Origin: an uncultured candidatus Porisulfidus sp.
GTDB lineage: Bacteria; Pseudomonadota; Gammaproteobacteria; Poriferisulfidales; Poriferisulfidaceae
DNA: 64,000 bases
Direction of reading: 5' to 3'
NCBI GenBank assembly: GCA_965199755.1
Contig: CBDASZ010000002.1
Span: 256,001 to 320,000 of the forward strand
Shown: positions 6,121-21,360 of the stretch, one piece after another
Layout: every line of letters begins with the position of its first letter
Position numbering within the stretch: the stretch's first letter is position 1
The notes under the pieces: generated by a model
Told to the model about the DNA's origin: nothing
What the model saw: the letters and a program-made list of their open reading frames with translations, nothing else
Database searches by the model: none
Translations under genes and position numbers: made by a program

Positions 6121-6750
6121 TTACGGGGCCGGAGTCTCCGGTACCGTGTCGTGTCGCGGCCAATCGTTGATAATCTGACAGAAAATCCGCGCCGTCATGT
6201 GGGCGTCGTAGCCAGCACTGTGCGCCTGCTCGGTGTCCCACTCGAATCCCGCTTCTTCCGCAATGCGCGACAGTACGGTCTGGCCGTAGGCGGCCGCACC
6301 TAAACTCACGGTATCAAGTGTGCTGAACGGATGAAACGGATTGCGCTTGAGGCCGCAACGGGCGGCGGTAGCATACATCACCGCTAAATCAAACGCGGCA
6401 TTGTGGCCCAACAGAATCGCGCGCTGGCAGTGGTGCTCGCGAACCGCGGCACGCACCATCCGAAACACCTCTTCGAGCGCGACCTTCTCAAAGACGGCTT
6501 CACGCTTCGGGTCGTGCGGGTCAATCTTCAGCATCTCCAGCGAAACTGGATCCAGACGGGCACCTTCAAAGGGTCGCACCGCCAGTTGCAACGGCTCTTG
6601 CGGTGACAACCGACCTTGGGCATCCATCGTCAGCAACACTACCGCGACCTCCAGCAAGGCGTCGGTCTCAGGCACCAGACCTCCGGTCTCCACATCTATC
6701 GCTACCGGCAAAAACCCGCGAAAGCGGCTCTCCATGCTCACGCCTGTCAT
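6121..6750 (-). CDS. rnt: Ribonuclease T
   Basis: RFRGFLPVAIDVETGG, HNAAFD, KRNPFHPFS, AHSAGYD motifs. Confidence 0.97.
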   Translation of the reverse strand: MTGVSMESRFRGFLPVAIDVETGGLVPETDALLEVAVVLLTMDAQGRLSPQEPLQLAVRPFEGARLDPVSLEMLKIDPHDPKREAVFEKVALEEVFRMVRAAVREHHCQRAILLGHNAAFDLAVMYATAARCGLKRNPFHPFSTLDTVSLGAAAYGQTVLSRIAEEAGFEWDTEQAHSAGYDAHMTARIFCQIINDWPRHDTVPETPAP

Positions 6751-6810
6751 AACGTCACTTCCCTCCTCTCCCTATAATAATACGTCAATCGACTGTGCTG
6801 GCGCACTGCC

Positions 6811-8010
6811 ATGTCTCAATACCGCAAAATTGTGCTCGCCTATTCCGGCGGACTCGACACCTCTATCATCCTGAAGTGGCTACAGGAACAGTATGCCTGC
6901 GAGGTGGTTACGTTCACCGCTGATTTGGGTCAGCAGGAAGATCTGGAGCCGGCGCGCAAGCGCGCGGCTGACTTGGGCGTGGGCGATATTCGCGTGGTGG
7001 ATTTGCGCGTGCCATTCGTGCGGGATTATATTTTCCCGATGCTGCGGGCCAACCCGCTGTATGAGGGACAGTATTTGCTGGGCACCGCCATCGCGCGCCC
7101 GCTAATCGCGAATGCCATGGTGCAGGTGGCGCATGAATGCGGGGCGGACGCTATTGCGCATGGCGCGACCGGCAAAGGCAACGATCAAGTTCGTTTCGAG
7201 CTGGCAGCGCGGGCTCTGGCACCAGAGCTCGGCATCATCGCACCTTGGCGGGAGTGGAAGCTGAACTCTCGCAGCGCACTGCTGGAATACGCAGCGCAGC
7301 ACGACATTGAAGTCGAGACCGACGCCGAGGGCAAAAGTCTCTATTCCATGGACGCCAACATGCTGCACATCTCTTATGAGGGCGGCATTCTGGAAGACCC
7401 GGACGCGACAGCACCAGAAGATATGTGGCGCTGGACCTGCGGTCCAAGACACGCTCCTGACAAGCCGCAAGTGGTGCGGATCGGTTTTGAGGGCGGCGAC
7501 GCTGTATCAATCGACGGCGAAACGCTGGCTCCGGCTGCGCTGCTGGAATACCTCAACACGATTGCGGCGCAACACGGCGTTGGGCGGGTTGATCTGGTCG
7601 AAAACCGCTATCTGGGACTGAAATCGCGTGGCTGCTATGAAACACCCGGCGGCACTGTGCTGCTGGCCGCGCACCGGGCGATCGAGTCGCTGGTACTGGA
7701 TCGGGAGGTCGCGCATCTGAAAGAAGAATTAATGCCGCGCTACGCGACCTTGATCTACAACGGGTACTGGTTCAGCCCGGAACGGGAGGCCTTGCAAGCA
7801 TTCATTGATCACACGCAGCGCGGGGTCAGCGGCGAGGTGCGGCTGCGGCTGTACAAAGGCAGTGTGTTCGTGGAGGGACGCAGCAGTCCCAACAGCCGCT
7901 ACGATCCGACTCAGGCGACTTTTGAGGATGATCAGGGACAGTTTGATCAGAGTGATGCCACTGGTTTCATTCGGCTGTCCGGACTGCGCCTGCGCAAGCC
8001 TGGGAGTTGA
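6811..8010 (+). CDS. argG: Argininosuccinate synthase
   Basis: [33 protein letters not shown] motifs. Confidence 0.98.
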
Positions 8011-8097: not shown

Positions 8098-8826
8098 ATG
8101 CAATACAGACGCATTTTGATTTCGCCGCTTTGCGCGGCTGTGGCCGCAGGCATTATGCTGGCGGCTATGCCAGGCATTGGCGTTGCGGCAGTCGCCCCCG
8201 ACCCGCGTGATCCGTGGGAAGGCTACAACCGCACCATGCACGCTTTCAACGACACAATTGACAATGCGATTGTCAAGCCCGTGTCCACTCTGTACAAGGC
8301 TGTCACGCCGAAACCGGTGGATCAGGGCGTGACGAATTTCTTCTCCAATCTGGGAGAGCTTCGGAACTTTCTGAACTCAATGCTACAAGGCAAACCGGAG
8401 CGCAGCTTCAATGCGCTGGCTCGGTTCGCGGTCAACAGCACCGTCGGTCTGCTTGGCGTCGTTGATGTCGCAACCAGCCTAGGGATTGAGAAAGCGCCGG
8501 AAGATTTCGGCCAGACGCTGGCTGTGTGGGGATCAGGGCCGGGGCCTTATTTCGTATTGCCCTTTTTCGGTCCGAGCACCGTGCGCGATGCGTTCGGCAA
8601 GCCGTTTGATATTGCCGCGAATCCGGTCACTTGGCACGATGAAGCAACGATTTTATACGGCGTTGATGTGGTGGATTATCGCGCCGACCTGTTCGAACTC
8701 GAAGAAAGTGTCGAAGGCATTACTGAGGATGAGTACGCGCTCATTCGCAACGCCTATCTTGACCAGCGCGAATACGCCATAAGCGACGGCGAAATGGATG
8801 CCGACGCTTACGATATTGGCGAATAG
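8098..8826 (+). CDS. mlaA: MlaA/VacJ family outer-membrane lipid asymmetry protein
   Basis: DPWEGYNR, NFFSNL, NSTVGLLG, EDFGQTL, GPYFVLPFFGPSTVRD motifs. Confidence 0.95.
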   Translation: MQYRRILISPLCAAVAAGIMLAAMPGIGVAAVAPDPRDPWEGYNRTMHAFNDTIDNAIVKPVSTLYKAVTPKPVDQGVTNFFSNLGELRNFLNSMLQGKPERSFNALARFAVNSTVGLLGVVDVATSLGIEKAPEDFGQTLAVWGSGPGPYFVLPFFGPSTVRDAFGKPFDIAANPVTWHDEATILYGVDVVDYRADLFELEESVEGITEDEYALIRNAYLDQREYAISDGEMDADAYDIGE

Positions 8827-8830
8827 GATT

Positions 8831-8859
8831 CAGTACCCGTCGGAATGACGGGATGACTG
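8831..8859. terminator. Hairpin between convergent genes, possible bidirectional terminator
   Basis: CAGT-A-CCCGTC GGAAT GACGGG-ATG-ACTG stem-loop. Confidence 0.45.
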
Positions 8860-8862
8860 GAT

Positions 8863-9063
8863 TCAGCCACCGAACAACTTCTTGATTGAGCCGATCAGTC
8901 GGCCCATGCCGCAGCTCGAAGATTCACTCGATGCGGACGGTGCCGGATCAGCAGCGGGTGACGCTTCGGCTGATGCAGCGGGCGCGGCACCGGAAGACCC
9001 GGATGAACCTGCGCTCGCCATCTGTTCGTAGTGTCGTCTGAGAACGGAATCAGTTGGAACCAT
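8863..9063 (-). CDS. Small hypothetical protein: PTDSVLRRH motif, Ala/Ser linker, C-terminal amphipathic helix
   Basis: GGAGG RBS upstream of ATG, 66 aa, ends GRLIGSIKKLFGG. Confidence 0.75.
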   Translation of the reverse strand: MVPTDSVLRRHYEQMASAGSSGSSGAAPAASAEASPAADPAPSASSESSSCGMGRLIGSIKKLFGG

Positions 9064-9167
9064 AATGGATTGCCCTCCAAAAATCAGCCCTCATTGTAGC
9101 GCACCGCTTACGCGAGAAATTTGGACCTTAGTATGCGCGGCCAGTGGCGCATATCGAAATGATGGTT

Positions 9168-9854
9168 TTATTGGGAGCCTGAACCGGCAGCCTCATCATC
9201 ATCCGGCTCCAGCCACGACACCATAAGCCCGGCGATGGCACCAATGACCCCAAGTGAGAGAATCTGCAGCCACAGTGTGATGAACCGACCAGTGGTCGTA
9301 ACCGGATAGTGCTCACCAAAGACCGCAGGCTCCGCTCCGAATATCGTGGACACACACCACCACATGGCGTCTTCCGCCGAATGAATGTTGGAGCCTTCCG
9401 CACCATATTCGACGCTCAACAAGAGGAAGGCAGAGAAGATCAGTGAAAGCGCAGTAACCGAGAAAACACTGGCAATAAGCGAAGCACGATAGTTGAGCCG
9501 GGTCGTCAGGACGTTTGTGAGGCGCATGATAGCCCGCAGCGCTCTGAACATCAGGAAGAACCGCAACACGCGTAGGGCTCGCAACTCTTCGATGTACGGC
9601 ACGGAAGCCAGAATGTCGATCCATCCCCGTGTAAACCAAGCACGCTTGTTTTCCGCCTGATAGATGTCCCAGATGACCTTGGAGATGAAGACAGCGCAGA
9701 TCAAGTAGTCGCTAATAACCCACAGGCGAAGATACTCTCCATCCAGATCTCCCGTGACGCGCAAACCCAGACCGACGACAGACACCAGCGCAAAAATCAT
9801 CAAGGTCGTCTCGATGATCAGTTCCGCAATGGATACCGGGCGATTGGGTTGCAT
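9168..9854 (-). CDS. 6-TM voltage-gated-type cation channel (ion transporter family) with non-canonical selectivity filter
   Basis: S3 WIDILASVP, S4 LRALRVLRFFLMFRALR, pore helix SAEDAMWWCVST, YPVTTTGR before S6. TVGYGD is absent. Confidence 0.85.
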   Translation of the reverse strand: MQPNRPVSIAELIIETTLMIFALVSVVGLGLRVTGDLDGEYLRLWVISDYLICAVFISKVIWDIYQAENKRAWFTRGWIDILASVPYIEELRALRVLRFFLMFRALRAIMRLTNVLTTRLNYRASLIASVFSVTALSLIFSAFLLLSVEYGAEGSNIHSAEDAMWWCVSTIFGAEPAVFGEHYPVTTTGRFITLWLQILSLGVIGAIAGLMVSWLEPDDDEAAGSGSQ

Positions 9855-10125
9855 GAGCGAGTTATTTCAGGGATGGTCCAGATAATTATATTAATCCTGA
9901 AATATTGTGCTTAAGATTCTGTCGGTTTGAATTCAAATTTGAGGTCTGGGAATGCCTTCTTCAAAGACTCTGCCGCTTCTAACGTTCCTGTACCCCACTG
10001 GTTACTAAACACATATGTCTTTTCGCCAATCAGAAAAACCTCTCCGTCGTTACAAAAATATGGGACTTACCAGCCTAATTAGCCAAGAAGGGCTTGATAT
10101 CCAGCGCGGGAATGGCTAAATTTAA

Positions 10126-11068
10126 TCAAGAACGGACAGGGGAATACATTTCAGGGTCGGTAGGTCCATAAATTCCTACGACAGAAGTTTGCACTGCTGC
10201 AGCCACGTGCAACAAACCCGAATCATTGGCTGCCCTACATCAGGCTATGGCAATGATGTCAACCACTTCTTCAAGAGAAGTTTTGCCACATAAATTAGCG
10301 ACTTCGCAACCATATTTCTGCGCTATCTTTTCACCCAGCCCCCCCCCCCCATTAAGACGATTTGATAGCCGTCAGCAATCAACATTCCTGCTAATTTATT
10401 GAAAGACTCCAAGAGCCACTTCTTCGCACTCCACCTTGACGCACCCGGTGCCAAAACAATTAGTTCTCGACCCATATCCAACTTAAACTTTTGCATTGTC
10501 TGGTCCATTCGTTCCGGGTAAACTACGAGATGTGGATTCGGGACAGGATTCGAATGCGGCATATCCGGTGGCAGTAGTCGAACAATTTTCTCTTGAAAAC
10601 TTCGTGATCGACGCACCCTTAAATCATTCACCAGCCAAGGCCGTACTTGCTGAACCCTGTGCGGCGAGCAATGCCGGCGAGAACAAGCAACATGCCGGCA
10701 TTTGTTGAGCGTGGAGTCAAAATGGATGCAGGATAGTTTTCACTACGAATTTGCTTTATTGTTCTGAACCATAAGCGAGACGGGAATCTGCCCTTGGTAG
10801 TGTTGATCTCAAAGTGATTGCGAACTTTTGGCATTCGCTTAATGAACCCTCGAAAATGTGATGGTGCCACGACGTCGATAATCATCGACAGGGCATGTTC
10901 TTTCAGTAAGCGAAGCAACGTCTGGTTCATCACCAGATCACCAACGGACGTATCCAATACCACCAACAAGTGGGAGTACGCAGTATCTTCAGAGGTCGCA
11001 ATATCGGTGGGTGATTCACTCATGGCAGGATGTTCTAAATTGACGAGATGTTCCTGAAACTGTGTCAT
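10126..11068 (-). pseudogene. GT9 LPS heptosyltransferase (WaaF-like) pseudogene
   Basis: VGDLVM, LAPGASRWSAKKW, NLCGKTSLEE and NDSGLLHVAAAV..GIYGPT motifs are split over three frames. Frameshift near 10635, G12 tract at 10339-10350, in-frame TGA at 10240-10242. Confidence 0.85.
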
Positions 11069-12660
11069 TATTTGATGTTTTCTCTGAGCTCCCAGTACAC
11101 ATCTATGTGCTGCCGTGCAATCAGTGCAGGATCGTATTGTTTTGCCCGTTCAATTCCTGCCTGGGCAAACTTTTGGCGCAATTCTGAAGATTGATACAGG
11201 CGAGTTATTTGCTGTGCTAGCGCATCCGCGTCATTAGGAGAAACCAGCACCCCACACTCATCAGTAACGACTTCCGGGATCCCCCCGACTCGACTGGCCA
11301 CAATGGGGATACCTGAGTGCATCACGTCCAATAGTATAGAGCCTAAAGACTCGATCAGTGAGGGAAATACGAATAAATCAAAAGTATCCACCCACGCCCA
11401 AGGCTCTTCTATCCACCCGGCAAAATGAATATTGCTCAGTCCCTTCGCTTGCTGGCGCAACTCTTCTTCCAAACGACCAGCACCCAGTAACAGAAACTTC
11501 ACATCTGGAAAATCCGCTGCTAACAATTGTGCAGCCCGGATCAGCACCGAATGTCCCTTCTCTGGTCCATCCATTGCAGCCACATGTCCGATCAAAAATT
11601 TGCCTGAAAACTTCTCGCGGATTTTGGCAGTACTTTCCGGGTCTGCGTCTCTGGGATTCCAGGCATCGGGGATGCTATAGGTAGAAATATACGGAAACCT
11701 CTGACGCACACCTTGCTCAACCGCATCTGTGAGTGTAATCACAGTTTCTGCATTTCGATAGATGGCAGAACTATACAGATTGTTGTTGATGGGTTTTGTC
11801 AGCCTCCGTGTGATCAAATACTTGCTACGCCAAATGAGCGACGCGGCATACGCCACTTGTGTGGCATGCGCCTCATGCGCGTGCAGTAAAGAAGACCCAC
11901 GACACGCAAACAACGCGGCGAGCCGACTTCGCGCCAAGTGGAGTTCAATGGTCTCGGTATTTTTAAGGCGCGATGCCAGCGGCCCATGCTTCAATACCAC
12001 AACCCGTTGTTCGGCGACTCCCTCTTTTTCGAGGGCCTGAATCAGAATTTCGGTTTGACGCTCCCCTCCTCTCAGCTTGGAGTCTCGCGCAAGATTGAGG
12101 TGGCATACCGAGGCAGCCTGCAAGCGCGATTTGCGGAATATCTTAAGCCTGTATTCGGGAAGTTGCGTTGCTTTTCTGCGTAGCAACCAAAGGGGTCCGA
12201 CCAGTGTGCGATAGCCCCGTGACGCAACCCATGTGGTCCTCCCTATGCCCCAAAACCAACACCATATCAGTCGAGTACTCCACGATAGCGGATCAACCAG
12301 TTGTGTTTCGATTTTGATTTCTACGATTGCCTTGCCGTTTAACTGAAGTTCATCTCTCAAACGGCACGCCGCGATCACTTCCACAAAGTGCAGTGCATGA
12401 CTGTTGCGTCGTGAAATAAGGCAGTGAATCCCGTTAATTTCAGCGTGCCAATAGTAAATGCGCCCTTCTTGAGGAATAGCCGTGTACTCTGGTTTGAACC
12501 GCACTGGCCGATCCAGAGCAACATTCAGTGAACCCGGATACGGAAGTGCCCCAAGCGCATCAGAAATCGGACTCGGTTCTATGTTCCACCGCGACGCAGT
12601 GCCATAACCGCTGACAACGCGGCCCCTTAGCACTGTCTGGTCGGACGCGGATTCCGGCAT
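11068..12660 (-). CDS. GT4 glycosyltransferase with N-terminal CTP-dependent riboflavin kinase-like (DUF120) domain
   Basis: C-terminal part: RGGERQT, EKGHSVLI, FVFPSLIESLGSILLD, ASRVGGIPE. N-terminal part: LRGRVVSGYG, LGALPYPGSLNV, VEVIAACRLRDEL. Confidence 0.85.
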   Translation of the reverse strand: MPESASDQTVLRGRVVSGYGTASRWNIEPSPISDALGALPYPGSLNVALDRPVRFKPEYTAIPQEGRIYYWHAEINGIHCLISRRNSHALHFVEVIAACRLRDELQLNGKAIVEIKIETQLVDPLSWSTRLIWCWFWGIGRTTWVASRGYRTLVGPLWLLRRKATQLPEYRLKIFRKSRLQAASVCHLNLARDSKLRGGERQTEILIQALEKEGVAEQRVVVLKHGPLASRLKNTETIELHLARSRLAALFACRGSSLLHAHEAHATQVAYAASLIWRSKYLITRRLTKPINNNLYSSAIYRNAETVITLTDAVEQGVRQRFPYISTYSIPDAWNPRDADPESTAKIREKFSGKFLIGHVAAMDGPEKGHSVLIRAAQLLAADFPDVKFLLLGAGRLEEELRQQAKGLSNIHFAGWIEEPWAWVDTFDLFVFPSLIESLGSILLDVMHSGIPIVASRVGGIPEVVTDECGVLVSPNDADALAQQITRLYQSSELRQKFAQAGIERAKQYDPALIARQHIDVYWELRENIK

Positions 12661-12793
12661 TCGGATCTAAAAGATAAAAATTAGATCAGCAATTATGCTG
12701 GTTTTCATCACCACATATGCACATTTCTCATAAAAGTGCTCTGCTTTTCCCGCATAATATGAATTCTGAGTGCTGATGAAAATCCCGGTTTTC

Positions 12794-13276
12794 ATGGCCT
12801 CACTCCCATCCTCAAGCCTTCCAATATCTGCAGTAATTCTGTTTAAGAACTCACTCGACACCTTGCCGAAAACACTGGACAGCCTGCAAGGGCTGGATGA
12901 GGTATTGATCTTTGATAACGGCCCGACACCGGAATTAAATCAGGCGTGCGCACCTTACTCTAACCTGCGGATCGTTACTGGAGAATTTGTCGGATTCGGC
13001 CCGATACGGAATCAAGCTGCGAAACTGGCACGAATCTGTACGATCTGTGAAACAAGAGCTAGAAAAAATCAATCGCTACACCGAACTTGCCACAAAGGAC
13101 TCGCGCAGACCTTCTTCCCTTTGGGGTGCTAGGTGCGAGCGACTTGGCAATTTTTCAACGCCTACGTGCTGGAGTTGGGAATGCTGGATGGCTGGCGCGG
13201 ATTACTATGCGCAGTGAACACAGCAAATACCGGTTTTTACAAGCACATTAAACGCGTGGCCGCTCGCGACGGCTAA
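12794..13276 (+). pseudogene. GT2 glycosyltransferase (WaaE/KdtX/LgtF-like) remnant
   Basis: ISAVILFKN..LDSL..LDEVLIFDNG..FVGFGPIRNQAA, then a jump to EKINRYTEL and to AYVLELGMLDGWRGL in other frames. The middle DxD region is missing. Confidence 0.75.
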
Positions 13277-13579
13277 ACTCATGGCTAGGCTCGCTCACCT
13301 GAATCATCGCTCATTTCCACGAACTAAAACGTCGGGACTCCTTGATGCGCCACCTTGTCTGCACAACAGTACTGATCGCCGCGATGGGTTTAGAGCATAA
13401 ATGAGTTTAGTTTTTTAGAATACGCGCCACCAACAAGAAAACAACGAAGCACGTTCATACCCATCCTTTCCCTAGAAGACAAACAGGCTTTGTTCGCCCA
13501 GCGCAGGTACAGGAGCCCTTTCAGCCTTCCAGTACGCTCTACCCGGGCCAGTTGCCTAGCTATATGGCGGCTGCTACAC

Positions 13580-14293
13580 TCGCATATTGAAGCATCTTCT
13601 CAACCTCTGCGTATATTGGATATAGGGTGTGGCTCCGGGGCTATGCTCCAGCATACTGCCTAGCATTGCCGCACAAAAAACTGGCCTGTCGAAGGAAATC
13701 TCCTTGGTTTGGATATTGATGAAGAAGCCTTTCAGGCAGAAGTCCCGTTCAAAAAAGCCGACCTAAACCTGCCACTAACCCAACAAGTGGAATCCTTCGA
13801 CATTATCATCGCCATGGAAGTACTGAAGCACTTGCGAACTCCATATCTGATGCTGGAAGATATTTACCAGACCCTGAATCCAGGTGGACATTTTCTGTTT
13901 TCAGTGCCGAATATTCACAACCTGCTTAGCCGGATCAAATTCTTGACCAAAGGCACAACCTACAAATACCACCTACCCAGTGCCGACTCATCAGATGCCC
14001 ATAGCACACACGGACATATCAGCCCGTTTTCAATCCAGTATTGGGATTATGGATTGCGCTATGCAGGGTTTTCGGATATTCACTATTCCACCGACCGATT
14101 CATCCGAGAAGCTTTAATTTGGGCTGCCCTCTTGTCGCCACTTCTATAGCTAGGAACCTGGTCGCTGCACCGTAGAGAGTAGCAGAGAAATCAGCGGATC
14201 TATGAACAAAACCACAGGGCAGCTCATGAAATCAATACGTTGCGGAATCTCGCTGGCAGTAACCTCATCGGAAAATGCGCCAAGCCCTTATAA
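13580..14293 (+). pseudogene. Class I SAM-dependent methyltransferase pseudogene
   Basis: LRILDIGCGSG near 13607-13640 is out of frame with ORF 13709-14149 (FDIIIAMEVLKHL, LNPGGHFLFSVPN). That frame continues through TAGs at 14147 and 14180 to TAA 14293. Confidence 0.75.
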
Positions 14294-14378
14294 CTGACTC
14301 TAATCACACGGCTACCTTTTCAGAAAGTTGTATGATCTCGCTCTCATTTCGCAATGCAAAGATTGAATCTGTAAGATT

Positions 14379-14947
14379 ATGAAAGCCCAGCAAATTGAAT
14401 TCCTAAAACTGCTCGAAGGCAGGGTTCAGGACATCATCCCGTACTGGCAACGCCGCTACTGTTGGGGGAAAGCCGACACCGAACGACTGATCGAAGATCT
14501 GATGGCAATCGCAGACGCAGATACAAATTCCAATCATTATGCGGGTAATCTTCTAACCTTCCCCAAACCAAAAACAGCCTGCACTAGTAAATCCAAAACT
14601 TTTCGTGTGGTCGATGGTCAGTAGCGACTGACAACCGTAAGCCTCTTACTCGCATGTATCGCCGAAAAACTAGAACACGAAGTAGGCAAAATTCCCTTAA
14701 ACTACATATCCGAAACCATAAGCAATCAGCTACTAACATCAGGAGGATGTGCCAGTTATCGCAGATCATACGATGTGAAATGGCAGACCAAAGTATTTCA
14801 GGGGATGTGGTGCAGGAAAGCAGGCAACGTAAAACCGTGCACGTTGAGCGCTCTTGGGAACGAGAAAACGACGATGAGTGGGAAGAGGCTTATGAGTGGA
14901 TTTATGAACAATACAAAAGACTAATCCTTTATATTAGAAAACGCTGA
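14379..14947 (+). pseudogene. DUF262 (GmrSD-type IV restriction) gene remnant with a DUF4268-like C-terminal fragment
   Basis: IPYWQRRYCW and VVDGQ*RLTTVSLLL, where TAG 14622-14624 replaces the second Q of DGQQRLT. It then joins, out of frame, to a short WERENDDEWEEAYEWI tail. Confidence 0.8.
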
Positions 14948-14980
14948 TTTTGAAGATGAGAAACATTGAGGTAGCTCCTA

Positions 14981-16783
14981 ATGAACACCAAAAATAGAAA
15001 CGAATTGATCGAAGATTTCCCTTGGATAGAACTTTACGAAAAAATTGCCGATCAATTACTACAATATCGCCATAACAGGAAACCACTTGTTGAACGCCTC
15101 CACGATATTGCTGCACGTGTTGAGCCTTTCATGAGCATGACAGATAAGGATGCGGAAGGCTCTTTGCCCTTAAGAGATATTGATCCTTTCACAACAATAG
15201 CCTCATTCAATCGCCGTACCAAATCCGAGAACAGAATACAGGTAGCCATCGAACTTGCTGAATTTCTTGGCGTCGACATGGATAAGCAACGTATTGAAGA
15301 AGCTATTTACGTACTGGGCGATCGTAGAAGTGTCCCAGAAGTGTATCCCGGAGCAACTTGGTTCTTTGCATTCGCTAAAAATCGCGAAGCAAATGATATT
15401 GATACTCTTTGGAATTTTTTTGAAAGAGCACTTGAGTTTGCGGATTCTGCCACAGATGAAAGCAGGAAAGCTTTTACAGAAACCTATGACGAGGCTTTGA
15501 AATGCAAGCAGATCGGAGACACTAAGTTGAGCATGGGGCTGTACTGGATTCGTCCAAGGTCTTTCCAAAATCTGGACAACTGTACCTGCCCATACATAGA
15601 AAATGTACTCGACATACCAATACAAAGTAGCGGCCCAAAAGGACGTAACGCAGATGATTATCTGGCACTACTCAGCGAACTCGAAACCAGATTTAAAGAA
15701 GACGCTTTCCCAGTACACTCATTTCCTGAATTAAGTTGGACTGCTTGGTGGCGGAATGAAACCGTACCCAAACCAATACCTGGCAATGACACCATATTCC
15801 CACCATATCCCCTCAATACGATTCTCTATGGTCCGCCTGGGACGGGGAAAACATACGCCACTGTCCGGCGTTGTGTCGAAATTTGCGAAGGTAAAGAAGT
15901 CCCAGATTCAGACAACAGTAATGACATTCGTGCCCGCTATGACGAACTGGTAGAGAAAGGGCGCATTGAATTCATCACTTTCCACCAATCATACGGCTAT
16001 GAAGAGTTCGTAGAAGGACTGCGGCCTGAAACTAGTGGAACAGACACTGGCTTTCGTCTTGAATACAAGGATGGCGTACTCAAGGAAATTGCTAAACGCT
16101 CAAGGAATAAAAACGAGCCTTATGTTCTCGTCATTGACGAAATCAACCGAGCCAATGTCTCAAAAGTGCTCGGTGAACTTGTCACGCTGCTGGAAGAAGA
16201 CAAACGCCAAAGAGCAGAAAATGAGATCTCCGCGACCCTGCCTCATTCTGGTGAGAAATTTTCTCTCCCAGCTAACCTTTTCATCCTTGGCACTATGAAC
16301 ACGGCTGACCGATCTATCGCACTGCTGGACACAGCACTGCGCCGCCGGTTCCATTTTGAGGAACTGCCCCCTAACCCTCAAATGCTAGAGAATGCTAAGG
16401 CTGCGACGGGAATTGACCTGCCCCGAGTGCTGCGCTCCATCAATGAACGTATTGAGTGGCTCTACGACAGAGACCATCTAATCGGTCATGCTTGGCTAAT
16501 GAATGCCAAAACACGAGAAGGTATAGACGAGATTATGCGATGCAAAATCATTCCCCTCCTGGCTGAATATTTCTATGAAGACTGGCAGAAAGTTCAGGCC
16601 ATTCTCGGAGGCACTGATGACTTCGTGCGGAAAGAAAAACTCAACCCACCGCCAGGCCTCGAAAACGAAGGTGACAAACGCTACCGGTGGACAATCAGAG
16701 AACGCTTTGGAGACGATGCCTACACCCGATTAATCAAAGGTAACCCAGATCAGAAACCCACGAAGGATGATGTCGCAGACTAA
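14981..16783 (+). CDS. mcrB: McrB family AAA+ GTPase (type IV restriction)
   Basis: GPPGTGKT, FHQSYGYEEFVEG, DEINRAN, GTMNTAD, ALRRRF, IGH motifs. Followed by McrC. Confidence 0.93.
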   Translation: MNTKNRNELIEDFPWIELYEKIADQLLQYRHNRKPLVERLHDIAARVEPFMSMTDKDAEGSLPLRDIDPFTTIASFNRRTKSENRIQVAIELAEFLGVDMDKQRIEEAIYVLGDRRSVPEVYPGATWFFAFAKNREANDIDTLWNFFERALEFADSATDESRKAFTETYDEALKCKQIGDTKLSMGLYWIRPRSFQNLDNCTCPYIENVLDIPIQSSGPKGRNADDYLALLSELETRFKEDAFPVHSFPELSWTAWWRNETVPKPIPGNDTIFPPYPLNTILYGPPGTGKTYATVRRCVEICEGKEVPDSDNSNDIRARYDELVEKGRIEFITFHQSYGYEEFVEGLRPETSGTDTGFRLEYKDGVLKEIAKRSRNKNEPYVLVIDEINRANVSKVLGELVTLLEEDKRQRAENEISATLPHSGEKFSLPANLFILGTMNTADRSIALLDTALRRRFHFEELPPNPQMLENAKAATGIDLPRVLRSINERIEWLYDRDHLIGHAWLMNAKTREGIDEIMRCKIIPLLAEYFYEDWQKVQAILGGTDDFVRKEKLNPPPGLENEGDKRYRWTIRERFGDDAYTRLIKGNPDQKPTKDDVAD

Positions 16784-18047
16784 TCACTTCACTTGCCATG
16801 AGTGGGAGGAATTGCACATCAAGGAAAATAACTTGTCAGAAAAGCAGGTTGAACAACTCCATACTTACGCCGAGCGTGCCAAGCAGCATCTGAAAAAAGC
16901 CACTGTCTTAACTCGCACGCCAGGTGGTCTGAAAGCCGACCAAGTAGTTGGTATTTTACAGACTCCGAGTGCCACTTTAGAAATTCTCCCCAAGATAGAC
17001 GGCGAAGATGATACTGTGCGAAAAGCCCTCGTTCACATGCTTGCTGAAACTTGGGATCTGGGCGTGACACATGGCGAACTCGCTTCCTTAAGTGCCCAGT
17101 CCGATAACCTGCTGGAGTATTTCATTCGGCTATTTTCAGAACGGCTTCTCGCCGCTATTCGCCGAGGACTACCCCGACGCTATCTCGTCCACAATGACGA
17201 TCTCCCTGTGTTGCGAGGAAAACTGAACGTCGTGCGTCAGTTGACGCACCTATCCGTTCGACCAGACCGCCTTGCTTGCCGCTTTGATGAACTGTCAGAA
17301 AATACTCCCTTGAATCGCGTCCTGAAAGCAGCCGTCATACGACTCTCACGCATCACTCGATCAGCAGTCAATGCACAGAAGCTGGCCGAACTTTCTTCCC
17401 GCTTTGAGGCCGTAGGCGATACCCAGACACCACTTCGCGAGCCTGTGCGGATAGACCGTACCAACACGGCTTTTCATGTTTTATACCGACTAGCGCGATT
17501 TTTCCTGTCGGGAGACTGGCAGAGCACCTCAGGCGGAAAGGCTGTAACGGGATTTTCCCTGCTATTCCGAATGAACGACTTGTTCGAAGAGTACACCGGG
17601 AGAATCCTGAAACGCATACTGATTGATTACACCGTGAATCTCCAGCACCGAGGAGAACACGCACTGATCAGCGAATATGGTACTCGCATATTTGCCTTGC
17701 GCCCTGACATTGTGATTCAAGATAATGGCGGCCCCATCATTCTTGACACGAAATGGAAGCACCTTAAACCTGAAAAATCGAGACTGGACGTTTCTCAGTC
17801 CGATGTCTACCAGATGCTTGCATACGCCCATGCCTACAAAGCACAGCGTCTCACGCTTATCTACCCGTGGCACGCGAAAATAAACAAGCCTCCCGGGTTG
17901 TGCCAAAGTTGGAGAGTTCCAAAAACCGACTGCCCCTTCGACATAGTGACAGTCAATGTCGGTGGTCCAGATTCCGTATCAGGCACCCTGCGAGATTACA
18001 CTGACCAATTTCTCAACGATACTAACCCTATGAAAGACGCTGCCTAG
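16770..18047 (+). CDS. mcrC: McrC family PD-(D/E)xK nuclease subunit
   Basis: LEILPKI, GL.RRY, LRGKL, FRMNDLFEEY, LRPDIV..ILDTKWK, DVYQMLAY motifs. Overlaps the end of mcrB. Confidence 0.93.
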   Translation: MSQTNHFTCHEWEELHIKENNLSEKQVEQLHTYAERAKQHLKKATVLTRTPGGLKADQVVGILQTPSATLEILPKIDGEDDTVRKALVHMLAETWDLGVTHGELASLSAQSDNLLEYFIRLFSERLLAAIRRGLPRRYLVHNDDLPVLRGKLNVVRQLTHLSVRPDRLACRFDELSENTPLNRVLKAAVIRLSRITRSAVNAQKLAELSSRFEAVGDTQTPLREPVRIDRTNTAFHVLYRLARFFLSGDWQSTSGGKAVTGFSLLFRMNDLFEEYTGRILKRILIDYTVNLQHRGEHALISEYGTRIFALRPDIVIQDNGGPIILDTKWKHLKPEKSRLDVSQSDVYQMLAYAHAYKAQRLTLIYPWHAKINKPPGLCQSWRVPKTDCPFDIVTVNVGGPDSVSGTLRDYTDQFLNDTNPMKDAA

Positions 18048-18099
18048 CTTCTCTCATTTTCACAAAACCTCCACTACCAACGAATACGAAAACCCCGCT

Positions 18100-18717
18100 C
18101 TAGTGCGGTGGCCCCAACACTCGGTCCAGCCCCACTTCCAGTCGCTCCAGATCATCACGCAGGTTATCCACTTCGTGCATGAAGGCGTCGACCTCCTCCT
18201 GGTGCGGCGTCACGTCTGATTCTTCGCGCAAGTAATCTCGTACATTGTCGGCCACAGCATCCCCAAAGGTCTGCGCCGCCAGAATCACATCTTCCAGCGT
18301 TCGCCCAATCACCCGTGCGGAAGTGTCGCCTAAGACATGCGACAGACGCTCCTCCAGATCCAGATCCAGTTTTGAAAAGAAGTTGCTCAAGTCCTGCGCA
18401 ATATCCACCTCACCCTGAAATTGAATGTCTTCACGCTGCTCGGCCATCGCATAGCGCACGAAGGCGGCCACATGTCCAGTTATGGCGAGGTCATAGTCAT
18501 TCGGCTCTATACCAAAGTTCAACTCTCCCTTGCGAATATACAGCCCGAATGCGGGGAATGGCTCCAGTTCCATTCTGACGGTCTGCTCTCCCATAGCGCG
18601 CAAGCGCAACTGAGCCTGAGGGTCGACCTGCAGAACCTCATTCAGCCCGGAATTCAGAAGAGCAAAAAAAGTAGGAGGCAACACGGCTATATCACGCGGT
18701 GAAAGAATGGGATGCAA
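18100..18717 (-). CDS. ubiJ: Ubiquinone biosynthesis accessory factor UbiJ (SCP2 domain)
   Basis: SCP2-like N-terminus, LDLEERLSHVLGD, DYLREE, EVDNLRDDLERLE motifs. Confidence 0.88.
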   Translation of the reverse strand: MHPILSPRDIAVLPPTFFALLNSGLNEVLQVDPQAQLRLRAMGEQTVRMELEPFPAFGLYIRKGELNFGIEPNDYDLAITGHVAAFVRYAMAEQREDIQFQGEVDIAQDLSNFFSKLDLDLEERLSHVLGDTSARVIGRTLEDVILAAQTFGDAVADNVRDYLREESDVTPHQEEVDAFMHEVDNLRDDLERLEVGLDRVLGPPH

Positions 18718-18843
18718 ATTATACAGGCAACCCTCAAATTCCCTGCTTGCCCATCTTGCTTTAATATGTAATATAATCTGAAACGAAGCGGGGATAACTC
18801 TTAACTTTTATATATATAAGAATATATTATCAGAAGCCGAGGT

Positions 18844-20730
18844 ATGATCACCATGAAACAGTATCCATTGCTGGAACGCATCAACACTCCTTCCGATTTG
18901 CGCGAATTAAATGAATCGGAGTTGCAGGGCGTTGTCGACGAATTACGCGAATATTTGATTCACAGCGTCGCACACTGCGGCGGACATTTCGGAGCCGGAT
19001 TGGGGGCTGTCGAATTGACGGTGGCGCTGCACTATGTGTTCAACACCCCGCACGACAATCTGGTCTGGGATGTCGGACACCAAAGTTACGGACACAAGGT
19101 ACTGACCGGACGACGTGACAAGTTGAGAACCATCCGGCGCTGGGAAGGCCTCGCACCCTTCCCCGACCGTGACGAAAGTATCTACGACAGCTTCGGCGTC
19201 GGACACTCCAGCACCTCGATCAGCGCGGCTCTCGGCATGGCGTTAGCCAGTCGCAACGCCGATGAGGATCGCGAAGCGGTCGCCATCATTGGCGACGGTG
19301 GCCTGACCGCGGGACTGGCATACGAAGGCCTCTGCCATCTTGGCGATACCGGTGCCAATGTGCTCGTCGTGCTGAACGACAACCGGATGTCCATCTCTCC
19401 AAACGTCGGTGCCATGACCAAGTACCTAACCCGTATTCTGGCCGGTAGCAGTTATGCCTCGATGGTCAAGGGCAGTGAGTGGATACTCAACAGCATCCCC
19501 GGCGGGATTCGTAACCTCGCCGCAAAAATGGAGAAGCAGGTCAAGGGCATGTTTGTGCCCGGCAGCCTGTTCGAGGAACTGGGACTGAGTTACTACGGTC
19601 CGGTGGACGGACACGATTTGCCGGAACTTCTGAAAATCATGACGCAGGTGAAACAGCACAGCGGCCCTCGCCTTCTACACGTGGTCACCTGCAAAGGCAA
19701 AGGCTACCAGCCGGCAGAAGAAGATCAGGTGGGGTATCACGCGGTGCCCAGCGGCTTCGACCCGGAGATCGGCGTGGTGAAAGCCCCCAAGAATCCGAAT
19801 GCGGCCAAAACCTATACCCAGATCTTCAGCGACTGGCTGTGCGATCAGGCGTCGGAAGACACCCGACTGCTGGCGGTCACCCCAGCCATGCGAGAAGGCA
19901 GTGGGCTGGTTCGCTTTGAGAAGGAATATCCCGACCGTTACTTTGATGTGGCGATCGCCGAGCAGCATGCTGTCTGCGTCGGTGCCGGCATGGCATGCGG
20001 CGGCGCGAAACCGGTCGTCGCCATTTATTCCACCTTCCTGCAGCGCGGCTACGATCAGTTAGTCCACGACATTGTCGTGCAGCAACTGGATGTGCTGCTG
20101 GCGGTTGACCGGGCCGGCATGGTTGGTGCTGACGGCAAGACGCATGTCGGCTCTTTTGATCTGTCGTACATGCGCTGCCTGCCTAATCTGGTGATCATGG
20201 CTCCCTCCGATGAGGATGAGTGTCGCAAATTGCTGACCACCGGCTATCAGCATCGAGGCCCGGCGGCCGTGCGCTATCCGCGCGGAACGGGACCCGGTGC
20301 CACTGTTGACCCGGCACTGGAAGCAGTGGAAATCGGCAAGGCCCGCCCGGTGCGCGAAGGTAGCAATGTCGCGTTTCTGGTATTTGGCAGTTTGCTGGAC
20401 CAGGTACTGCCCATCGCTGAGGATTTGGATGCCACTTTGATTGACATGCGTTTTGTCAAGCCTTTGGATGTCGAGTGCATCAAACAGGCCGCGGACACGC
20501 ATGACATGCTGATCACCGTCGAGGACAACGTACTGGCCGGAGGAGCCGGCAGTGCCGTCGCCGAGACGTTCGGCCCGGATGAGTCGGTGCGCTTGTTGCG
20601 CCTTGGTTTGCCGGACCACTACATCCCGCACGGCACACGCGAAGAGCAACTTTCGAGCGTAGGCATGGATACCGCAGGAATGCGGGCAACCATAGAGCAA
20701 GCCGGAATCCCCCGCGGAAGCAAACGTTGA
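18844..20730 (+). CDS. dxs: 1-deoxy-D-xylulose-5-phosphate synthase
   Basis: GGHFGAGLG, WDVGHQ, GHSSTSISA, IAEQH, YSTFLQR, DRAG, RYPRG motifs. Confidence 0.98.
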   Translation: MITMKQYPLLERINTPSDLRELNESELQGVVDELREYLIHSVAHCGGHFGAGLGAVELTVALHYVFNTPHDNLVWDVGHQSYGHKVLTGRRDKLRTIRRWEGLAPFPDRDESIYDSFGVGHSSTSISAALGMALASRNADEDREAVAIIGDGGLTAGLAYEGLCHLGDTGANVLVVLNDNRMSISPNVGAMTKYLTRILAGSSYASMVKGSEWILNSIPGGIRNLAAKMEKQVKGMFVPGSLFEELGLSYYGPVDGHDLPELLKIMTQVKQHSGPRLLHVVTCKGKGYQPAEEDQVGYHAVPSGFDPEIGVVKAPKNPNAAKTYTQIFSDWLCDQASEDTRLLAVTPAMREGSGLVRFEKEYPDRYFDVAIAEQHAVCVGAGMACGGAKPVVAIYSTFLQRGYDQLVHDIVVQQLDVLLAVDRAGMVGADGKTHVGSFDLSYMRCLPNLVIMAPSDEDECRKLLTTGYQHRGPAAVRYPRGTGPGATVDPALEAVEIGKARPVREGSNVAFLVFGSLLDQVLPIAEDLDATLIDMRFVKPLDVECIKQAADTHDMLITVEDNVLAGGAGSAVAETFGPDESVRLLRLGLPDHYIPHGTREEQLSSVGMDTAGMRATIEQAGIPRGSKR

Positions 20731-20754
20731 CCGCCAAGTAACCAACTCAGTCTC

Positions 20755-20795
20755 CCCGCATGGAGTGGCACACTGTGTGCTACTCCTTACGCGGG
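20755..20795. other. Long intergenic hairpin/palindrome
   Basis: GGAGTGGCACA-CTG-TGTGCTACTCC core (20762-20786), extended by CCCGC/GCGGG. Confidence 0.5.
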
Positions 20796-20865
20796 TGCTA
20801 AAATTCGCCACCGAGCCTGACCGACAGAGCTTTCTGTTTAGGGTTCCACCGCACAACACGTATTC

Positions 20866-21360
20866 ATGAATTTTTTGCCCGAGCATACTGTTCAAGCCAA
20901 CAAGGTGGTGGAGTTCACTTACCGCATTCTGGACCAACACGGAAAGGTTCTGGAGCAGATCGACGTGCCCGTCTCCTACGTGCACGGCAGTGAACACGGC
21001 CTGTGGCACCGCGTTGAAGCGGCGATCGAAAATCGCCGCGCCGGAGACACCGTCGAAGTCTTAGTGCGCCCAAAAGATGCCTTTGGTGATTCAGATCCGG
21101 ACTTGCTGATCACACAGAATCTGGAGCATGTGCCGCCGCAGTTTCGGCATATCGGTGCGGAAGCGGATTTCCAGAATGAGGAAGGCGACATACATCGTTT
21201 TCGGGTGACCGCGATCGAAGGTGACACGCTGGTGCTGGACGGCAACCACCCGCTCGCCGGCAAAACCCTGAAGTTCTTTGTCAACATCCTGAACGTGCGT
21301 GACGCCACTGAAGAAGAAGTACGCAATCCCGACAGTCTCAGCACCCCCATCGTCCACTGA
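20866..21360 (+). CDS. slyD: FKBP-type peptidyl-prolyl isomerase, SlyD-like without the His-rich tail
   Basis: YVHG, P.DAFG, LDGNHPLAGKTLKFFV..VRDATEEE motifs. Confidence 0.88.
   Translation: MNFLPEHTVQANKVVEFTYRILDQHGKVLEQIDVPVSYVHGSEHGLWHRVEAAIENRRAGDTVEVLVRPKDAFGDSDPDLLITQNLEHVPPQFRHIGAEADFQNEEGDIHRFRVTAIEGDTLVLDGNHPLAGKTLKFFVNILNVRDATEEEVRNPDSLSTPIVH

Follow-up and report, generated by a model that had tools for sequence, protein, structure and literature searches.

The 64,000-nucleotide stretch analysed here (the window; positions 256,001 to 320,000 of contig CBDASZ010000002.1) comes from an uncultured gammaproteobacterium, candidatus Porisulfidus sp., and carries on its minus strand, at 9168..9854, an uninterrupted open reading frame (ORF) of 228 codons plus stop for a six-transmembrane (6TM) channel related to the voltage-gated K+ (Kv) channels. 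We refer to this protein as P0001 and number all residues after it. Its distinguishing feature is the loop that follows the pore helix, T170-P184 (9303..9347, minus strand, like all channel features below), in which the K+-channel signature has given way to a longer, acidic sequence. The same loop recurs in a subfamily of variant channels, most of which are encoded next to an exonuclease gene.

The channel gene and its pore loop

P0001 matches the Pfam Ion_trans model (PF00520) over residues 13-213 (E 4e-10; 39.8 bits against a cut-off of 25), and the Pfam scan returned no domain besides this one, a cyclic-nucleotide-binding domain being absent. The K+-pore model Ion_trans_2 (PF07885) reaches only 19.2 bits, under its cut-off of 22.5. 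The top sequence matches in the PDB by HMMER are KvAP (6uwm and 1orq; E about 2e-9) and KcsA, and every one of the best 60 of 101 matches is named a K+ channel; the ESM Atlas returned generic ion-transporter clusters only. An AlphaFold2 (AF2) model of the monomer, built on the 66-sequence family alignment described below, has a mean predicted local distance difference test score (pLDDT) of 75.8, with values of 81-90 in the blocks of the pore module. Its helices (residues 9-33, 39-66, 70-84, 94-119, 122-149, 160-172 and 187-215) give S1 to S6 of the model together with a re-entrant pore helix (160-172) between S5 and S6, and a tail of about 13 residues extends beyond S6. A Foldseek search with this model likewise led to Kv channels, the best superpositions being those with KvAP (template-modelling score 0.51) and AKT1 (0.62-0.68). 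The very short S4-S5 junction of P0001 agrees with these two matches, both of which are non-domain-swapped structures, and the subfamily probably adopts a KvAP-like, non-domain-swapped 6TM fold.

The S4 segment contains arginines at positions 92, 95, 98, 104, 107 and 111 (R92-R111, 9522..9581), which, judging from their conservation in the family, would serve as gating charges together with counterparts in S2 and S3. The pore helix P1 spans A160-F172 (9339..9377) and the S6 inner helix T187-L215 (9210..9296). A preliminary description of this DNA, made from the letters without database searches, had reported an intact 6TM gene free of decay with an arginine-rich S4, a particular pore-helix string and YPVT ahead of S6, and each of these elements was located, the string at D162-T170 and YPVT at Y183-T186. 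It had also described the loop as three residues longer than that of K+ channels and as lacking TTVGYG. Both points hold, as the HMMER alignment with KvAP and the MAFFT alignment with the nearest canonical relatives agree in placing a three-residue insertion in the loop, and neither of them finds a T-x-G-Y-G signature there. Only the extent of the loop needs correction: the boundary at 9303 is right, but the quoted interval of 9303-9363 reaches M164 within the pore helix, whereas the loop proper ends at 9347.

The codons for T170-E175 were confirmed by hand in the window DNA. Relative to the canonical filter, the loop has other residues in place of the Thr, of both filter-site residues and of the first Gly, and it gains an acidic side chain, that of E175 (9330-9332), in mid-filter; F-G-[DE] is retained at the position of the canonical Y-G-D, and neither the pore helix nor the H-Y-P-V-T flank departs from the canonical form. 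In the AF2 model the P1 helix (160-172) is followed by a turn at G173-E175 and a predicted one-turn helix at 176-179 (P176-F179, 9318-9329), with pLDDT values of 84-88 in these blocks. The closest relatives that we found are canonical K+ channels, and by alignment their signature is replaced by F-G-A-E-P-x-x-F-G-D.

A conserved subfamily of variant-loop channels

A word-indexed search identified a sole close relative, P0002 (229 aa, 76% identical), whose loop is alike save for conservative changes. An exhaustive search covering 1.84 billion representatives found 2879 matches at E <= 1e-3, six of them at E <= 1e-30. Among the best 149 of these matches, the query excluded, 134 carry [TS][VILT]G[YF]G, five (P0013, P0014, P0023, P0089 and P0118) carry the variant loop, three (P0102, P0107 and P0147) are N-terminal fragments that align with variant members, and the remaining seven show other filter deviations. 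Among the representative matches, different non-canonical filters (T-V-G-F-N-D, T-T-G-G-S-E-N, S-T-C-G-N-T-E, A-G-G-G-Y-G-N and T-T-A-G-G-G-D) were seen in the short Kv-like proteins P0076, P0092, P0099, P0117 and P0143, so that the filter has been rewritten several times within this group of channels. A profile built from variant members recovered about 65 full-length clusters at 90% identity with scores of 300-368 bits, the next canonical channels scoring at most 136 bits. The precomputed annotations assign PF07885 to one variant cluster above 300 bits (P0202), as against every listed canonical cluster having a Pfam entry.

The family alignment of 66 full-length sequences, from proteins of about 225-285 aa, yields the consensus loop T-L-F-G-A-E-P-x-x-F-G-D-H-Y-P-V-T, and the K+ signature T-x-G-[YF]-G is not present in the corresponding columns of any of the 66 members. 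The residue at position 175 is acidic throughout (E in 59, D in 7). Elsewhere in the loop the P0001 residue, or the one named, is found in 62 sequences at T170, 56 at F172, 65 at G173, 57 at A174, 46 at P176, 65 at F179, 56 at G180, 50 at H182, 65 at V185 and 59 at T186, with D in 42 and E in four at position 181. The alignment has 29 invariant columns, which include R92, R95, R98 and R104 of S4, F56 of S2, D80 of S3, A160, A163 and W166 of the pore helix, and W195, L196, G202, G205, A208, G209 and W214 of S6; D49 (65 sequences), D63 (64), R107 (64) and K59 are near-invariant, each being present in 64 or 65. S6 is altered along with the loop, since position 195 is an invariant Trp in the family as against Gly in the nearest canonical protein, P0015, and Leu or Phe in three others aligned, while position 200, a hinge Gly in canonical channels, holds Ser (58 sequences) or Ala (8). 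P0001 itself has the loop pattern T-h-F-G-A-[ED]-P-x-x-F-G-[DE]-H, both W195 and L196 in S6, and a place within the variant clade. A sub-variant loop, F-G-I-E-P-D-N-F-D-G-L-R-V-V, occurs in P0014, P0213-P0220 and L023.

In a tree from a quick IQ-TREE search, rooted on the 12 nearest canonical sequences and read with their long outgroup branches in mind, the variant clade (41 rows) forms a single branch with an SH-aLRT value of 99. Together with the 66 aligned members, this bears out the suspicion of the preliminary description that the channel might belong to an undescribed subfamily: the group is monophyletic, conserved and apparently undescribed. The same description had asked whether close homologues keep TVGYGD, the loop then being a private mutation or an assembly error. 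They do not; the loop is common to P0002, to the profile-search clusters and to the 66 aligned members, and is therefore neither private to this genome nor an artefact of its assembly. Three clusters (P0221-P0223) have a loop shorter by three residues. As these nest in a Gemmatimonadota subclade of the tree, their state is best explained by secondary deletion, and the possibility that their canonical-length loops are evolutionary intermediates was rejected. The ratio of non-synonymous to synonymous substitution rates (dN/dS; Nei-Gojobori) lies between 0.04 and 0.20 in all 22 pairs of channel genes compared from public loci, a set that includes pairs whose adjacent exonuclease gene, described below, has been deleted. 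The P0023 protein (155 aa) has S1 fused directly to S5-P-S6, without S2-S4, and the channel gene of L037 (6001-6653) is frameshifted; such damaged members may reflect sequencing errors in long-read metagenome-assembled genomes (MAGs).

The subfamily is rare, and its phyletic distribution spans several phyla but is patchy. Within the window's own order it was found in 1 of 53 genomes, and among 401 genomes sampled evenly from the class again in one, in both cases the genome of the window itself. Those same-genus genomes that have a channel encode a canonical T-T-V-G-Y-G-D protein (T-I-G-Y-G-D in one) that is 26-29% identical to P0001. A pattern scan of GTDB species representatives recovered 30 loci when queried with the alignment, and none when queried with a single protein. 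All 30 lie in MAGs from three phyla, mostly in Longimicrobiales/Gemmatimonadota. The gammaproteobacterial hosts are Ca. Foliamicus, Ca. Rariloculus, Halieaceae and Pseudomonadales, and those in the Acidobacteriota are Ca. Marinacidobacterium, Bryobacterales and one unclassified lineage; some of the isolate labels resemble those of marine-invertebrate symbiont surveys, from which they might come. Three genomes have two copies each (L010/L032, L011/L031 and L020/L026). Phylum labels cluster on the tree, requiring four changes where the minimum is two, and one Bryobacterales sequence is placed within a gammaproteobacterial group. We take this multi-phylum but patchy occurrence as a probable sign of horizontal spread. 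Plasmids are not among the carriers detected: a tblastn search of 72,556 of them found no variant channel and no full-length copy of the exonuclease partner, the only matches being a canonical K+ channel (27.5% identical) and a dnaQ-like gene (34.9% identical).

The exonuclease partner and the orphan copy of the window

ORF clustering over the 30 loci revealed one recurrent neighbour of the channel gene. Its ~390-aa product begins with an exonuclease domain of the DEDDh type (Pfam RNase_T, E 1e-23 to 4e-27); the middle matches a TerB-like domain and the C-terminus a BRCT domain, both weakly. It fits both PADLOC PDC-S48 models near full length (E 1.1e-95 and 1.5e-54), and all 16 partner exonucleases scanned match PDC-S48 (best E 7e-99), while two channel proteins matched no PADLOC model at E up to 0.01. 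PDC stands for the phage defence candidates of PADLOC, an experimentally untested class (PMC11514479). Our literature search found PDC-S48 in no paper, and no report on the combination of DEDDh, BRCT and TerB in phage defence. The likeness to PDC-S48 is confined to the upstream partner, as PADLOC lists a single gene and its models include no linked channel gene.

By tblastn, the channel gene of 18 of the 30 loci has a full-length exonuclease gene immediately before it on its own strand; the channel of the window has no such DEDDh-BRCT gene in that place. The exonuclease stop codon overlaps the channel start codon in nine of these 18 intact cassettes, and a gap of 7-15 nt separates the two genes in three more. 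At L014 (5051-5903) the exonuclease is split in two pieces with its middle missing, and at L024, L025, L029 and L030 just its first 25-39 residues are left directly upstream of the channel. These remnants indicate that the partner was deleted and the channel retained, with dN/dS values of 0.10-0.14 for the channels concerned. The exonuclease is absent at L017 and L020, and L035 is cut by a contig end. At L011, L021, L026 and L028 an unrelated gene, 'c5' (~450 aa, range 446-504), takes its place upstream. This gene lies at about 4.0-5.9 kb in each locus and has no Pfam, NCBIfam or PADLOC match; a P-D-G ... E-A-K pattern in its product recalls the PD-(D/E)xK nucleases, and the ESM Atlas offers a weak PDDEXK_4 lead (10% of one cluster's members, score 0.91). 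L020, L021 and L026 also encode, after the channel and on the opposite strand (about 6735-7450, minus), a protein of 215-237 aa, whose C-terminus in L026 is over the Pfam BRCT cut-off (23.0 vs 21.3 bits), and L020 (4130-4633) and L021 (7430-7954) each have, within ~1.3 kb, a stand-alone exonuclease (RNase_T, 167-174 aa). The modules of the partner thus recur near the channel as separate genes.

The association is also seen from the side of the exonuclease. In each of five genomes checked, the sole full-length PDC-S48 match adjoins the channel gene. Among 151 genomes sampled from the order to which one Gemmatimonadota host belongs, ten have an exonuclease match at E <= 1e-50. Nine of these matches are full-length, and a channel gene follows each of the nine; it is whole in seven cases and truncated or broken in two (L064 and L066); these counts share loci with the 30-locus counts and are not independent of them. 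The genes that flank the cassette vary from locus to locus and include AhpC, a Mur ligase, a ParA-like ATPase, HlyD, a sulfatase, an AIR synthase-related protein, a Na/sulfate symporter and, in one case, a Schlafen/AlbA_2-type gene. That these flanks differ, and are mostly of a housekeeping type, implies that the exonuclease-channel pair behaves as a self-contained mobile unit. Predictions of a complex between the two proteins gave an ipSAE of 0.00 in both runs, which, as no controls were folded, speaks neither for nor against binding. No fusion of the two proteins was found among candidates of 502-2000 aa, which is weak evidence, nor among six representatives at E <= 1e-30.

The window itself contains no exonuclease partner detectable by tblastn, the only match being the ordinary dnaQ (1709-2395, 29-32% identical), and that dnaQ is also the sole exonuclease match in the whole 1.39-Mb genome (E 8e-9). 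P0001 and P0002 share a long branch (1.39) and are together sister to the other 39 variant rows of the tree. Set against the consensus of the remaining 64 sequences, P0001 differs at 30 of 79 columns with a conservation of at least 90%. P0002 shares most of these changes, and the positions affected include the near-invariant S108-T109-T110. This S-T-T motif lies just after S4, on the cytoplasmic side (window 9525-9533), and is present in 64, 64 and 59 of 66 sequences at its three positions; it is missing precisely in the partner-less P0001/P0002 lineage; a tie to the BRCT-bearing partner would be pure speculation. Nevertheless, P0001 retains all 29 of the family-invariant residues, and its identity to P0002 is 85% at family-conserved, 75% at intermediate and 68% at variable columns. 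From the alignment, the pair reads as a diverged yet still constrained orphan lineage.

Comparison with other genomes of the genus places the channel gene in a variable island of ~12 kb (8827..20865, no strand assigned), which extends from mlaA to the genes at 20866-21360 and 21372-23714. The order rnt-argG-mlaA is conserved in four same-genus genomes, none of the same-genus genomes has the island, and in one of them, G009, only ~0.4 kb separates mlaA from the orthologues of the two genes at the far end. Close to the upstream side of the channel (from about 9800 onward) the G+C content drops to 44-50%, against 55-61% before. The island carries an McrB-like AAA_5 gene (14981-16783, plus strand) and an McrC gene (16767-18047, plus strand; PF10117, E 1.2e-75), as well as fragments of a family 9 glycosyltransferase (GT9, 10323-10631), a GT2 enzyme (12770-13132), a methyltransferase (13709-14149) and the N-terminal part of GmrSD (81 aa, 14379-14624); a GT1 gene is also present. 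Taken together, this content points to a variable region undergoing decay within a reduced genome of 1.39 Mb. An ORF of 66 aa with a low-complexity middle rich in Ser, Ala and Pro (8863..9063, minus strand) closely follows the channel on its downstream side; neither Pfam nor PADLOC matches it, and tblastn against the examined regions downstream of mlaA in four same-genus genomes gave no hit. It is covered by contigs from RNA libraries, which in four metatranscriptome runs of one study match the window at 9447-9606, 9596-9868, 9824-10012 and 8800-9072 with 100% identity and a depth of ~3-5. Contigs matching parts of the 5' half of the channel gene and of its upstream region occur in three of the four runs; they span no part of the 3' half, the loop included, from which nothing is concluded. 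As DNA carry-over is possible, we regard these contigs as a weak hint of transcription only. A scan of the region for promoters and terminators gave no excess over shuffled sequences.

Possible functions of the channel and its nuclease linkage

Comparison with characterized channels helps to frame the functional possibilities. The subfamily shares with KvAP and other short prokaryotic Kv channels the 6TM layout, the S4 with Arg at every third position, the counter-charges in S2 and S3, the W-W pore helix, the H-Y-P-V-T flank and the S6 glycines, and its short S4-S5 junction is like that of KvAP and AKT1. It differs from KvAP-type K+ channels in having a three-residue-longer acidic loop in place of T-T-V-G-Y-G-D, Ser or Ala at hinge position 200, the invariant Trp 195 and a sub-cut-off Ion_trans_2 score. 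NaK and the cyclic nucleotide-gated (CNG) channels have lost K+ selectivity; their filters are related to that of K+ channels but place an acidic residue after the filter Gly. Filters of the T-V-G-D-G and T-I-G-E-T-P types do not occur in P0001. The family loop differs from those of NaK, with its filter TVGDGN (PMC9822992), and of CNG channels in both motif and length; NaK furthermore has two transmembrane segments (2TM), and CNG channels possess a cyclic-nucleotide-binding domain. BacNaV and CavMr are homotetrameric, voltage-gated 6TM channels in which an acidic ring between the P1 and P2 helices sets selectivity (PMC7041947). The AF2 monomer of P0001 suggests a similar P1/P2 arrangement with an acidic side chain, but the T-L-E-S/G-W motif is lacking, and the likeness would be convergent. 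Membership of P0001 in BacNaV was considered and rejected, as it has no T-L-[ED]-[SG]-W and no Na+/Ca2+ channel is named among the best 60 of 101 PDB matches. The closest functional precedent is NirBac, a tetrameric KirBac scaffold with foreign P-loops that conducts monovalent cations non-selectively (PMC4607889). It resembles the present family in having a K+-channel scaffold with a replaced P-loop; it differs in being a 2TM Kir/KirBac protein with a cytoplasmic domain and without a voltage sensor, so that it serves as an analogy only, and its P-loops vary even among close relatives, whereas the new loop of the present family is conserved throughout (PMC4607889).

Weighing these data, we lean towards a functional tetrameric pore for cations, gated by voltage, without K+ selectivity and with a ring of four glutamates, which in most relatives would act as the membrane arm of a nuclease module. 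Of the two options put forward in the preliminary description, a channel of different selectivity (non-selective, Na+/Ca2+ or other) and a non-conducting voltage sensor, this takes up the first. The four K+ sites of a canonical filter depend on the hydroxyl group of the Thr and on the backbone shape that the first Gly of G-Y-G permits; as both are missing from the family filter, these sites would be lost. By sequence logic and the monomer model, four subunits would assemble into a voltage-gated cation pore in which permeation is set by the four E175 carboxylates, held between the long pore helix and the one-turn second helix. The G173-A174-[ED]175 turn, followed by Pro with the short helix and then F-G-D, might bring these carboxylates near the tetramer axis, a CNG/NaK- or BacNaV-like solution on a K+-channel scaffold. 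With a carboxylate ring replacing the K+ sites, the pore is predicted to be non-selective or to prefer Na+/Ca2+, and divalent cations might either permeate or block it. In most relatives the channel gene comes second in a compact two-gene cassette that probably moves horizontally, after the gene for a PDC-S48-type DEDDh exonuclease-(TerB-like)-BRCT protein, and this position makes it probable that the channel is the membrane arm of the nuclease module, which is plausibly aimed at phages or other mobile DNA. The operon coupling suggests that pore and nuclease act together, and the action might run in either of two directions: depolarisation or cation entry could signal to the nuclease, or depolarisation could itself be the effector. 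The window copy belongs to a divergent, partner-less lineage on a strain-specific island that also carries McrBC.

Several observations weigh against this interpretation. The AF2 model is monomeric, so that an E175 facing the pore axis is assumed and not seen. Three members (P0221-P0223) have secondarily lost three residues of the loop, and several database members (P0023, L037, L064 and L066) are truncated or frameshifted. The defence aspect draws on gene order and on PDC-S48, which is only a candidate label in PADLOC, and the flanks of the cassette are mostly housekeeping genes that differ across loci. Lastly, neither the window nor the whole genome has the exonuclease partner, and P0001 lies on a long branch with many altered conserved columns.

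If the loop instead plugged or collapsed the pore, the protein would be a non-conducting voltage sensor that senses potential or serves as an anchor and thereby regulates a partner (the exonuclease in relatives), somewhat like the proteins that consist of a voltage-sensing domain only. We consider this quite unlikely. It accords with the charges of the voltage sensor being the most strictly conserved features, with the classical incompatibility of a replaced first Gly of GYG with a K+ filter, and with a tight operon link to a soluble enzyme. A dead pore is, however, hard to reconcile with the pore residues G173, E/D175, F179, W195, G202, G205 and G209 being as conserved as the sensor; in addition, the foreign P-loops of NirBac conduct (PMC4607889), and orphan copies without a partner are still under purifying selection. 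It is very unlikely, on the other hand, that these proteins are essentially K+ channels with an unconventional filter. K+ channels free of the signature have been reported, e.g. TbIRK (PMC5429665), the nearest relatives of the family are all K+ channels, and F-G-[DE] stands at the Y-G-D position between a canonical pore helix and an H-Y-P-V-T flank; against this, the Thr, both site residues and the first Gly are all replaced, an acid and three further residues are inserted in mid-filter, and the Pfam K+-pore model stays under its cut-off.

Two further explanations concern the setting of the gene more than its pore. The window copy might be a decaying leftover of a lost cassette, drifting on a fragment-filled island with no present function, as would fit a genome without the partner, the long branch with 30 of 79 conserved columns altered, and the fragmentary state of the neighbouring glycosyltransferase, methyltransferase and GmrSD genes. 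We give this little credence, since the ORF is of full length and free of stops and frameshifts, the 29 invariant residues are all retained, the changes of the lineage are mostly common to P0002, and the identity between the two proteins peaks at the family-conserved columns; the RNA contigs over the 5' half add a weak hint in the same direction. Finally, the protein could be a cation channel with an ordinary physiological role, its gene lying next to that of the exonuclease through co-transfer or for reasons of DNA-repair physiology, with no joint action of the two. The mostly housekeeping flanks, the mere candidate status of PDC-S48 and the persistence of orphan channels under selection are compatible with this, but we think it improbable in view of the translational coupling of exonuclease and channel by stop-start overlap, the linkage across three phyla, also in the rearranged split-gene form, and the channel gene that follows nine of nine full-length exonucleases in the sample of one order.

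A more specific version of the interpretation that we favour, a non-K+-selective pore coupled to a nuclease, is that the exonuclease-channel pair constitutes a two-gene immune module triggered by membrane potential. This is a doubtful proposition at present. Under it, the entry of a phage genome or another depolarising insult would move the sensor and open the Glu-ring pore; the ensuing regenerative depolarisation and/or divalent influx might be read by the TerB-like/BRCT exonuclease, which would destroy the invading DNA, or the cell would shut down. The orphan of the window would then be a stand-alone offshoot. If true, the module would provide the first example of a voltage-gated channel used in prokaryotic immunity, and a natural case of a K+-channel scaffold turned into a carboxylate-ring pore of the Na+/Ca2+ type.

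While the superfamily is well known, our literature search, which was limited, found no report of the subfamily, its filter or its linkage to a nuclease, and all three appear to be undescribed. To our knowledge, natural families that combine a K+-channel scaffold with a different conserved filter are few, namely NaK, CNG channels with their hyperpolarization-activated (HCN) relatives, and NirBac. The family described here is small (~228 aa), bacterial and probably homotetrameric, with an intact voltage sensor and a new Glu-centred loop, and may therefore be a tractable one for studying how K+-type pores are converted into carboxylate-ring pores. Furthermore, the operon-level link with a nuclease, seen in three phyla, suggests that bacteria put voltage sensing to a use that appears not to have been described so far.

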